Below are positions 45,001 through 48,000 of a DNA stretch of 64,000 nucleotides, piece by piece (position 1 is the stretch's first letter; each line of letters begins with the position of its first letter). The stretch covers positions 11,830 through 75,829 of the forward strand of contig CAZCCH010000006.1 of assembly GCA_964497315.1 (NCBI GenBank). The letters run 5' to 3'. Source of the stretch: an uncultured Planctomycetia bacterium (GTDB lineage Bacteria; Omnitrophota; Gorgyraeia; Taenaricolales; CAZCCH01). The position numbers were made by a program.

Positions 45001-48000
45001 AGAAATAGACCGCAAGATATGTGTAAGACATAATCACAAATATACATTTAAGAAATTACTAAAGAATGATTTTCTTAAGACAGCTGAGTGGTTAAAGATA
45101 CTCTTTCAGAGCAGAAAAAGAAAATCTTGTAAGAAAGGTTATTACCTTAATTTAAGAAATTTATTATCTTTGTTGTGTGTATTCTTTGGTTTGGTATCTA
45201 TGATTTTATTGCCAACAGCAGGAGAAGTGAGGTTTATGCATTTGACATTAGTGAGTTGCCTTTTAGTATTTCTTGCTGTCAATATTAGGTTCTATGCACT
45301 GCTTGCAAGAAAGGGAGGGGTTATATTTTTGCTCCTAGGACCGTTGTTTCATATAGCAAGCAGCATAGCTGCCATTTTTGGAATAGGATATGCAATACTT
45401 AACTTATCTAAAACATAGCAAGAAACTTCTTTTTAAAAACAATGCCTTGCCTGAACAGGTAACATTTTTTGTTACACCAAAGTGCAATGCAAGGTGCAAA
45501 CACTGTTTTGCCTGGCAGAGCCTGAATGATACAACCAAGGCAGAGTTATCCTTAGAAGAAATAGAAAAGATATCAAAGACTATGGGACATTTTACTTATC
45601 TTTTGCTTGGAGGTGGAGAGCCTTTTATAAGAGAGGACTTAGCAGAGATAGTAAAGATATTCTACCGCAATAACAATGTATTGAATGTTTCTATTTCAAC
45701 AAATGGCTTCTTTACTGAGCGTACGGCCACATTAGTAAAAGAGGTCCTGAAGGATTTTAAAAATAGCCTGACCATAAATGTTTCATTAGATGAAGTGGGC
45801 GATGACCATGATGAGTTTAGGCAGTTACCTGGTTTGTTTAAAAAGGCAACAGATACCTACCGGCTCCTAAAGGAGTTAAAGAAGGAATATCCAAAACTTA
45901 ATGCCGGTATTATAATGACATGCACTCCCTTTAATCAAGAGAGATTGAATCGGACGTACAATTGGCTAAAGGAGAATCTAAAACCATATTCTGTTGTTCT
46001 AAACTATATGCGCGGTGAGATAAAGGGCAAAGAGGAACTACCTGAAACAGACTTATCGGCATATGAAGATATAATGCGTATAATAGAAAAAGATAACCTC
46101 TCTGGGCAATTACCAGGCCATGGCAATTTTTGTTTTTCTAATTTTAATATCGCATCCAAGATACTTATGCGCAAGATGATAAGTAACACTGTAAGGACGA
46201 ATACATTTCAGGCACCTTGTTTTGCAGGGATATTGAATTGTGTGCTATGGTATAACGGGGATTTGTATCCATGCGAGATGCTTGATATGAAAATAGGTTC
46301 ATTAAGACAGAACGGTTACGATTTTATGAAGGCATGGAATTCTAATGAGGCAAAGAAAATCAGGCGCTTTATAAAAGAGACTAAGTGTTTTTGCACAGAA
46401 GAATGCAATATCAATATGAATATATTATTTAATATGCAGTTTTTGCCAAAACTTTTGGGGGGTGTGGCCAAGGTACGTGCGAATAGATTGCTTAAGAAGG
46501 TAAAGAGATGGCAAAGATAAAGGCAACCCTCACATTTCCCAGGTTTAAGTATGTTTCAGGTGACCCGCCTTTAGGGATTTGCTATATTGCATCGTATTTA
46601 AGGCAACACGAGGACGCAGAGGTATCCATATTAGATACTACCTTTAATCATTCCATGCGTTATTGCAAGGAGTTTTTAGAGGAGAAATCACCTGATATAG
46701 TAGGCGTGTTTGTTGATACGCTTATGTTTAATGATGCGCTTGAGGTCATTAACCTAGCTAAACAGATGGGTGCTTTTACAGTAGCGGGGGGACCACATGC
46801 TACTATCTTACCCTGCACCCTTGTAGATGCAGCGGATGTGGTAGTCACAGGAGAAGGTGAACGTACATTCACACATATAGCAAGGGCACTCAATCATGGT
46901 TGGGACATGTCAGATATACCAGGTATTTGCTATAAGAAAAATGGCAAGATTATTGAGAATGACCCTGCTTGTTCGCAAGAGCCACTGGATTCATTGCCAT
47001 TTCCAGCAATTGACTTGCTTGATATGAAAGACTATTTGAAATATTGGTATTACCTTGATTGTGTGGATATGGGTCTAAAGGGTACTACCATGATAACCTC
47101 AAGGGGTTGTCCTTTTGGATGCACGTATTGCCAGCCAACGCTGAATAATATATTTGGAAGAAAACTAAGACACCGCAGTCCATTAAACGTTGTTTCAGAG
47201 ATGAAATTTTTAAACAAAAATTATGGCATAAACGCCATCTTTTTCCATGATGATACTATGACGGTTAATAAGGAATGGATTTTAGAATTTTGCAATTTAC
47301 TGGAAGATGCAAGGCTAGATATGCTCTGGGGATGCAACAGCAGGATGAACACAATAGATTCACAAGTACTAGAGAGGATGCATAAAGTGGGCTTGCGCAA
47401 TATACACTTTGGCATTGAATCAGGTTCTCAGAAGACACTGGATGAGGTATATAAAAAAGGCATTAAGCTTGAAGATGTCTCAGAGAAACTTAAACTTACA
47501 AAGCATATGGGCATACATACCTTTGGATTCTTTATGCTGGGGGCACCCGAAGAAACAAGAGAAGACATAAAGAGGACAATTGATTTTGCAGTTTCGCTAG
47601 ATTTAGATGAAGCCTCGTTTTCTATTACAAACCCACTCCCCGGGACGCATCTATATGACATGGTAGCCCAAGATGAAAGGTACAGCATAAGTGAGGATTA
47701 TTCGGATTTTGATTACTACAGGAATAGGGCGTGGACAAATGGCTTTTTGAGTCCTCAAAAACTTAAGGATTACCAGAGGAAAGCATTATTGCGGTTTTAT
47801 CTACATCCCAAGCGGTTTGGATATATGCGCAGGCACTTTACATCCAAGGCCGGTGCTGTCAAATTATGTAATAAACTTAGGAGGTTTTTCTAGAAAATGC
47901 ATATAAGTTTTATAAATTCTCTTTTAGGTGGAGATTTTAGTGCGCTAGATATTGCCATTACAGCCTTAGCTACATACATAAATGAAAAAACTGAACATTC

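Follow-up and report, generated by a model that had tools for sequence, protein, structure and literature searches.

A twitch-domain radical SAM enzyme encoded beside, and in relatives fused to, a GT2 glycosyltransferase in an Omnitrophota polysaccharide locus

Results

A radical SAM gene overlapping a glycosyltransferase gene

We analysed a stretch of 64,000 nucleotides (hereafter the window) from an uncultured Planctomycetia bacterium (GTDB lineage Bacteria; Omnitrophota; Gorgyraeia; Taenaricolales; CAZCCH01), covering positions 11,830 to 75,829 of contig CAZCCH010000006.1 in assembly GCA_964497315.1, and focused on a gene at 45390..46520 whose product, hereafter the target, joins a radical S-adenosylmethionine (SAM) core to a cysteine-rich C-terminal domain. 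A first-pass annotation had read this protein as a SPASM/twitch-type enzyme in a polysaccharide locus devoid of a peptide substrate gene, acting perhaps on a sugar or on a protein partner. The start of the gene is overlapped by 29 nt by the 3′ end of an upstream family 2 glycosyltransferase (GT2) gene. The two genes and the principal elements of the target are listed below in window coordinates, with the source of each assignment in parentheses (AF2, AlphaFold2 model).

44432..45418, + strand: partner GT2 glycosyltransferase, 328 aa, a GT-A domain with C-terminal membrane helices (Pfam, AF2)
45390..46520, + strand: the target, a radical SAM enzyme with a C-terminal twitch (truncated SPASM) domain, 376 aa (open reading frame translation, Pfam, AF2, family alignment)
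45483..45506, + strand: CNARCKHC, the CxxxCxxC motif at residues 32-39, which ligates the SAM-cleaving [4Fe-4S] cluster (translation, family alignment)
46218..46406, + strand: twitch core, residues 277-339, running from C277 through a hairpin with G290, C295-E296 and helices to C333-x-C335-x3-C339 (Pfam SPASM, alignment, AF2)
46434..46514, + strand: basic amphipathic C-terminal helix, residues 349-375, net charge +9, a putative peripheral membrane anchor (AF2 helix)

The 376-aa reading frame is uninterrupted. Since the target protein recurs identically on contigs of several independent metagenomes and has homologues from 67% identity downwards, we treat it as a real, conserved gene, and its start codon is backed by a ‘YLK’ N-terminus that is kept in the family consensus. 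The target is a member of the radical SAM superfamily by its Pfam score (Radical_SAM, PF04055, 65.7 bits against a cut-off of 29.5), by the barrel of its AF2 model (predicted local distance difference test (pLDDT) score 94.5, predicted template modelling (pTM) score 0.92), whose core has six beta/alpha units, by its SAM-binding GGE motif (G75-G76-E77, invariant or nearly so in the family) and by the canonical CxxxCxxC motif, which had been correctly recognised in the first pass. In our alignment of the family (52 members, 34-67% identity), the last cysteine of this motif, C39, is invariant, and C32 and C36 are kept in at least 90% of members. The C-terminal tail of family members tends to be basic, with a median net charge of +4 and a charge of at least +3 in 38 of the 52; a basic amphipathic helix as modelled for the target would suit a peripheral membrane enzyme, a putative role.

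A twitch domain with cysteines for one auxiliary cluster

The Pfam SPASM profile (PF13186) matches the target at 26.4 bits against a cut-off of 21.5, spanning residues 277-339 of the protein and positions 1-66 of the 67 in the profile, and the AF2 model places a beta-hairpin at residues 283-293 followed by helices, which is the hallmark of SPASM and twitch domains. By definition, however, a full SPASM domain has seven cysteines, arranged as CX9-15GX4C, a gap, CX2CX5CX3C, a second gap and a final C, and binds two auxiliary clusters. Seven cysteines do occur in the C-terminal third of the target, but only C277, C295, C333, C335 and C339 are invariant among the 52 members, with C248 and C284 lacking conservation. 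The invariant residues are laid out as C277-x12-G290-x4-C295, then 37 residues, then C333-x-C335-x3-C339, and neither the canonical CX2CX5CX3C block nor the distal final cysteine is conserved in the alignment. Because only five C-terminal cysteines are invariant, the ligands suffice for one auxiliary cluster and not for two. The family therefore matches the PF13186 profile without having the seven-cysteine pattern, and, judged from the alignment, the target has a five-cysteine twitch domain with a predicted single auxiliary-cluster site, as in the subclass of BtrN, MoaA and SkfB. The architecture put forward in the first pass thus holds for a twitch fold with SkfB-like cysteine spacing, and falls away for a full SPASM domain.

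The likeness to SkfB is close at the level of the ligands. The auxiliary cluster of SkfB is bound by a CX33CXC motif together with an extra cysteine before the hairpin (PMC6231123); the target likewise has a cysteine before the hairpin, one after it and then a CXC, the distance to the latter being some 33-37 residues across the two enzymes. It differs in the additional invariant C339, and in a glutamate (E296), invariant in the family and directly following the hairpin cysteine C295, where SkfB has a glutamine. When a profile of the twitch domain only was compared with the PDB, BtrN came top (E = 0.007) and anSME next (E = 0.064), and in the anSME alignment the pair C295-E296 falls on C276-D277. 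Searched directly against PDB sequences, the C-terminal 107 residues returned a spurious match only.

Recurrent adjacency to and fusion with GT2 enzymes

The AF2 model of the partner GT2 (pLDDT 93.5) shows a GT-A domain and an interface helix, with membrane helices at the C-terminus. By fold it is closest to PcManGT (6yv7), a membrane mannosyltransferase of archaea, and next to GT2 enzymes of wall teichoic acid synthesis and hyaluronan synthase, and it is not of the DPMS/GtrB type. Invariant residues are D42, D88xD90 and D176, which are the usual GT-A acids, together with H200.

Inspection of the genomic context of homologues, proposed as a check in the first pass, ties the family to this partner. 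A GT2 of ~320-360 aa adjoins the family gene or is fused to it in all eight contexts inspected by hand. We then counted neighbours for 75 family genes in retrieved loci, detecting GT2 domains by hidden Markov model (HMM) and taking the 657 other genes of the same loci as background: a same-strand adjacent or fused GT2 accompanies 39 of the 75 family genes as against 65 of the 657 others (odds ratio 9.9, Fisher p = 6e-17). Fusions are both frequent and independent in the family. Fourteen of the 150 top cluster representatives are at least 558 aa long, and all ten that were scanned combine a GT2 with a radical SAM domain, the GT2 being N-terminal in nine and C-terminal in one (P0230); more such fusions are found in P0013, P0017, P0018, L035, L043 and L048. 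In P0018 the membrane tail of the GT2 has been dropped, and because the GT2 half is 46% identical to the GT2 of the window over residues 8-228, we regard it as the same partner.

Clustering of all non-GT2 neighbours revealed no second conserved partner, with only generic short-chain dehydrogenase/reductase (SDR), flippase, methyltransferase and family 4 glycosyltransferase (GT4) genes recurring. Several variants of the basic arrangement were observed. A GT2 of ~230 aa stands alongside the GT2-radical SAM pair in L009, L012 and L017, and tandem family paralogues occur in L021 and L036. One member (L056, 3429..5537) has an N-terminal LPG_synthase_TM domain (PF03706, flippase-like) in place of a GT2. 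More distant members have a second recurrent context, seen in L058, L059, L084 and L085 (for example L084, 6001..8000 and downstream), in which the family gene is followed in turn by the gene of a conserved protein of ~280-300 aa belonging to no assigned family, a shorter radical SAM paralogue (~340-370 aa) and a B12-binding radical SAM gene.

Since GT2 adjacency is recurrent and fusion is found in both domain orders, the link between this family and glycan synthesis is strong, and it is likely that the substrate of the target is a carbohydrate tied to the GT2 step.

Search for a peptide substrate

Most characterised SPASM/twitch enzymes act on peptides, and the target might in principle be a maturase, either of a ribosomally synthesised and post-translationally modified peptide (RiPP) with a distant precursor gene, or, in the manner of anSME, of a neighbouring protein such as the GT2. 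Its fold matches lend this some colour, as the list is headed by SkfB, anSME, CteB, SuiB and EpeE, and several peptide maturases appear among its NCBIfam matches at 44-66 bits, far under their cut-offs. The window, however, offers no intergenic room for a peptide gene. Between 32.4 and 63.8 kb genes abut or overlap, the widest + strand intergenic gap measures 39 nt, and reading frames of at least 20 aa near the target are all embedded in or antisense to larger genes, leaving no precursor-peptide gene; nor did the 349 intergenic reading frames (20-89 aa, at most 2.5 kb from a family gene) in the 75 loci contain a cross-locus family. The earlier statement that no precursor gene lies nearby is thus upheld and extended to the relatives.

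The target itself also lacks the features expected of a maturase. Only ~20 residues precede its radical SAM core, which excludes a fused N-terminal RiPP recognition element (RRE), and Pfam detected no PqqD/RRE family among the 54 window proteins scanned; SkfB, by contrast, has both an N-terminal RRE of ~100 aa and the precursor SkfA. anSME has a seven-cysteine SPASM domain with two auxiliary clusters and modifies a Cys or Ser of a sulfatase, whereas the target has five cysteines, no window protein has a Sulfatase Pfam match, and the anSME model is absent from the best 25 NCBIfam matches to the target. As for a protein partner as substrate, proposed in the first pass, the obvious candidate does not bear this out: apart from the ordinary GT-A catalytic residues, no Cys or Ser of the partner GT2 is invariant. 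With neither the precursor gene and RRE of a RiPP maturase nor the family match and sulfatase gene of an anSME, we judge a peptide or protein maturase to be very unlikely.

Extent of the family and its closest relatives

Searched with a profile, 1.84 billion cluster representatives yielded 2,799 50%-identity clusters at E <= 1e-30, and at least 575 relatives are present in GTDB species genomes, where the best match to the target is 42% identical. The family spans Omnitrophota, Planctomycetota, Chloroflexota, Acidobacteriota, Elusimicrobiota, Desulfobacterota-like lineages, the Candidate Phyla Radiation (CPR), Nanoarchaeota/Woesearchaeota and Methanosarcinales. In the NCBIfam models and the searchable full-text literature we found no account of twitch radical SAM enzymes coupled or fused to a GT2 in envelope-glycan loci, and full-text searches for radical SAM genes in O-antigen or polysaccharide loci likewise gave nothing relevant; what is new here is this family, its fold and cofactor logic being already known.

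Solved structures are all distant from the target (identity <=20%, template modelling (TM) scores of ~0.6 or under). The nearest is SkfB (71 bits with the family profile; Foldseek E = 7e-12, TM-score 0.58), and the profile also matches MoaA (53.7 bits), GDGT-macrocyclic archaeol synthase (GDGT-MAS), which is the fourth-best PDB match at 48 bits, and viperin or viperin-like enzymes (43 bits). The fold-match list further includes BlsE, DesII, BtrN and SpeY, all of them structurally solved radical SAM enzymes that act on sugars. The first pass had regarded a sugar as an unusual substrate class; the connection to glycans stands by way of the GT2, but as a class such substrates have precedent in these four enzymes.

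Some of these matches would also suit action before the glycosyl transfer, with the target modifying the nucleoside diphosphate (NDP) sugar donor by dehydration, deoxygenation, decarboxylation or epimerisation and passing an unusual or unstable product straight to the GT2. Fusion and adjacency suit either order of action, MoaA and the viperins act on nucleotides (prokaryotic viperin is also in the NCBIfam list, at 46 bits), and DesII and BlsE act on nucleotide-linked sugars. Yet these matches are weak and generic to the radical SAM core, and many conventional NDP-sugar enzymes are already encoded in the window. The flippase-like fusion of L056 and the amphipathic tail favour a membrane-bound substrate, although a soluble donor is still compatible with both. 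On balance we consider modification of the donor to be unlikely.

The surrounding polysaccharide locus

All reading frames of at least 150 aa in the window lie on the + strand, save two that are antisense inside + strand genes. The polysaccharide setting recognised in the first pass is evident from the genes themselves: sugar-nucleotide enzymes (uridine diphosphate (UDP)-glucose dehydrogenases, RmlA/B/D-like and other SDR enzymes), export and assembly genes (Wzi, a Wza-type exporter, a Wzz-like protein and a Wzx flippase), and genes for GT2, GT4 and five PMT_2 (GT-C) glycosyltransferases, a DegT aminotransferase, an AsnB-like amidotransferase, a GNAT protein and SAM methyltransferases. An Rfam scan of the window gave no match. 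The features of this locus that bear on the target are as follows.

35024..58335, + strand: radical-SAM-rich segment in which B12-binding radical SAM genes are interleaved with GT2, GT4, GT-C, SDR and DegT genes (Pfam)
39383..40762, + strand: PMT_2 membrane glycosyltransferase of GT-C fold, one of five (Pfam)
40781..41485, + strand: 234-aa GT2 resembling polyprenyl-phosphate sugar synthases of the DPMS/ArnC/GtrB type (PDB and NCBIfam matches)
46508..47893, + strand: B12-binding radical SAM gene overlapping the stop of the target by 13 nt, with HpnJ and BchE as best NCBIfam matches, far below cut-off (Pfam, NCBIfam)
22274..23587, 29843..31201, 49317..50645 and 50649..52280: the other PMT_2 (GT-C, ArnT-like) paralogues (Pfam)

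Eight B12-binding radical SAM genes start at 35024, 37724, 41490, 42996, 46508, 47897, 52289 and 56833. Their products share 23-34% mutual identity, all contain CxxxCxxC, and their best NCBIfam matches, HpnJ, BchE and ApyD, stay well short of the cut-offs. It is unusual for a single polysaccharide locus to hold nine radical SAM genes. A comparable arrangement is seen in a relative of the target with 50% identity (L008), where the order is B12, B12, GT2-radical SAM fusion, B12, with a PMT_2 and a small GT2 gene close by, and the mixture of B12 radical SAM and GT2-radical SAM genes is found again in several other phyla. In a recent survey of Omnitrophota, giant proteins have a domain module for ‘sugar metabolism’ that includes radical SAM domains (bioRxiv 10.64898/2026.06.07.730766). 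The picture suggested is of a surface glycan that undergoes radical tailoring on a large scale.

The abundance of B12-binding neighbours bears on two further readings of the target. It could be an AhbD/NirJ-like tetrapyrrole enzyme that tailors the corrinoid or haem for these eight enzymes, and the five best NCBIfam matches to the target are indeed AhbD, NirJ2, NirJ1, NirJ and AhbC. In the NCBIfam scan, however, every family scored below its own cut-off, and the tetrapyrrole enzymes did so by a wide distance (67-88 bits against cut-offs of 500-650; AhbD 87.6 against 500, NirJ2 76.7 against 500, NirJ 67.3 against 515), so that the target does not qualify as an AhbD or NirJ equivalog. AhbD-type enzymes have a SPASM domain of 7-8 cysteines (bioRxiv 10.1101/2023.10.20.563219) as against five in the family of the target. 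An enzyme that tailors cofactors would have no reason to be fused to a GT2, a GT2 is present without any B12 radical SAM gene in many family loci, and tetrapyrrole genes are absent from the window. A tetrapyrrole enzyme is accordingly an explanation to which we attach hardly any weight.

The second reading has the target modifying the lipid part of an acceptor, for instance by forming a C-C cross-link in a polyprenyl or membrane lipid, or by cyclising or desaturating it, as Tes, GDGT-MAS and Hbs do, in concert with its B12 methylase-like neighbours. Here the position of GDGT-MAS among the profile matches counts in its favour, as do the amphipathic tail and a B12-binding radical SAM gene at most three genes away in 21 of the 75 loci, and there is a precedent in archaeal lipid synthesis, where the AhbD-like SPASM/twitch enzyme Hbs clusters with the B12 radical SAM methylase Hgm (bioRxiv 10.1101/2023.10.20.563219). 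Against it, the sole consistent partner of the family and its sole recurrent fusion partner is a glycosyltransferase and not a lipid-synthesis enzyme, Tes, Hbs and GDGT-MAS have at least two auxiliary clusters where the family has cysteines for one, and the window contains no isoprenoid or lipid-synthesis genes. We therefore hold a lipid substrate to be decidedly unlikely.

The 234-aa GT2 bears on lipid-linked sugars. It matches DPMS of P. furiosus (5mlz) at 94.5 bits as well as ArnC in the PDB, and AglJ, PpgS and ArnC in NCBIfam, all below cut-off. GT-C enzymes draw on polyprenyl-phosphate-linked sugar donors, and the DPMS/ArnC-like GT2 fits with the five GT-C enzymes of the window; together they imply several periplasmic glycosyl transfers from polyprenyl-phosphate sugars. 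In pathways of the ArnC-ArnD-ArnT and DprE1/DprE2 type, a GT2 loads a sugar onto polyprenyl phosphate, chemical modification takes place on the lipid-linked sugar, and a GT-C enzyme then transfers it, the modifying enzymes being a deformylase and flavin/NADH oxidoreductases. The window has counterparts of the first and last components, but its modifier would be a radical SAM enzyme, and the direct partner of the target is a GT2 of a different type from DPMS/GtrB.

Further genes of the window lie at some remove from the target. Two adjoining GGDEF diguanylate cyclase genes (9..2395, one with GAF and one with membrane helices) stand upstream of the glycan locus, which may reflect control of polysaccharide production by cyclic di-GMP. 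An LptD-like protein (4028..6148) has named homologues that are all Candidatus Omnitrophota, the closest 44% identical, with a best overall match of 60%; the source organism appears thinly covered by reference genomes. A carbamoyltransferase (6152..7969) is followed by two small membrane-protein reading frames (7974..8381, 135 aa; 8333..8557, 74 aa), and a 148-aa reading frame (10121..10567) between a UDP-glucose dehydrogenase and an RmlA-like gene resembles, by eye, an RmlC-type cupin epimerase. Pfam matched neither of two further proteins, one of 567 aa (23581..25284), in which several membrane helices make up the N-terminal part and the C-terminal part is soluble, and a soluble one of 318 aa (62848..63804) at the end of the locus.

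Discussion

We propose that the target and its GT2 form a coupled unit in which the target acts on the sugar after the GT2 has transferred it, on the cytoplasmic side of the membrane, while a surface glycan or glycolipid is being made, and we assign this reading a probability of roughly 0.45. Action on a membrane-bound substrate is favoured because the GT2 has membrane helices and resembles PcManGT, because a flippase-like domain takes the place of the GT2 in L056, and because the target ends in a basic amphipathic tail.

The chemistry is probably that of an oxidase or an epimerase. Reductive cleavage of SAM would generate a 5′-deoxyadenosyl radical that abstracts a hydrogen atom from a sugar carbon, the sugar most likely being the residue that the GT2 has just placed on a lipid-linked acceptor. 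Glu296, adjacent to the predicted cluster ligand Cys295, could then deprotonate a neighbouring hydroxyl, with the auxiliary cluster accepting the electron, to leave a keto-sugar as in dehydrogenation of the BtrN/anSME type. The keto-sugar might be the end point, or might be reduced, transaminated, methylated or rearranged by the neighbouring SDR, DegT and B12-binding radical SAM enzymes. Alternatively, the fifth invariant cysteine, Cys339, might serve as a thiol hydrogen donor, which would give an epimerase-type variant.

Each part of this proposal has a counterpart in a known system. BtrN, the 2-deoxy-scyllo-inosamine dehydrogenase of butirosin synthesis, and SpeY have the same overall build as the target, with a radical SAM core, a C-terminal one-cluster twitch domain and no N-terminal peptide-binding domain, and both act on carbohydrate-like, non-peptide substrates as we propose here. 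They are nevertheless remote from it (~14-19% identity, TM-scores 0.28-0.41): BtrN has CX2C after the helix where the family has CXCX3C, its substrate is a soluble aminocyclitol of an antibiotic pathway, and it has no GT2 partner or fusion. anSME shares the hairpin region and its Cys-acid pair with the target, and carries out a radical SAM dehydrogenation in which Asp277 is reportedly the proposed general base.

A ‘glycosyltransferase first, radical SAM second’ order, such as we favour for the target, has likewise been proposed for calditol synthase (Cds), for HpnJ with HpnI and HpnK in formation of the hopanoid cyclitol ether, and for PtmC in pactamycin synthesis, in each of which a hexose would be remodelled once it has been linked to a lipid or aglycone by a glycosyltransferase (PMC13459092, PMC9092360). 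The genetic evidence for them comes from knockouts, and none of the three is described as fused to a GT2. HpnJ is a member of the B12-binding class and not of the twitch class, although HpnJ-like B12-binding genes flank the target in the window. MgdE, the cyanobacterial glucosyldiacylglycerol (GlcDG) epimerase, was considered as another precedent and dropped, being a fatty-acid-hydroxylase and Rossmann protein (PMC4742570).

Several observations weigh against the order of action and the chemistry that we favour. The full-length nearest relatives of the target are the peptide and nucleotide enzymes SkfB, MoaA and viperin, with no sugar enzymes among them, and the twitch-domain matches to BtrN and anSME are marginal at the E-values reported above. 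HMM-based detection found no adjacent GT2 in 36 of the 75 related loci, and the family may therefore be functionally mixed. Adjacency and fusion to a GT2 are compatible with action before as well as after transfer, and the analogy that would make E296 a base leans on the reported role of Asp277 in anSME.

SPASM/twitch radical SAM genes are usually taken as markers of peptide natural products, and here a large branch of them is tied to glycosyltransferases instead. It extends over thousands of sequence clusters in both bacteria and archaea, notably in uncultivated anaerobes (Omnitrophota, CPR, DPANN). More tentatively than for the coupled unit itself, we suggest that this branch might represent a widespread and undescribed pair, in which a membrane GT2 glycosylates a lipid-linked acceptor and the twitch enzyme converts the added residue to a keto, epimerised, deoxy or carbocyclic sugar, and which, combined with eight B12 radical SAM enzymes in the present locus, could yield a heavily carbon-modified surface glycan not so far described chemically. 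For biochemical work, the GT2 fusions that occur in nature, among them P0018 (559 aa) and P0167 (719 aa), can serve as constructs as they stand. If sugars are indeed remodelled on lipid-linked intermediates, the family would provide an oxygen-independent route to unusual envelope sugars, and genome-mining tools would have grounds not to label such loci as RiPP clusters. For the organism itself, nine radical SAM genes set among glycosyltransferases indicate a surface-glycan chemistry that has yet to be described.

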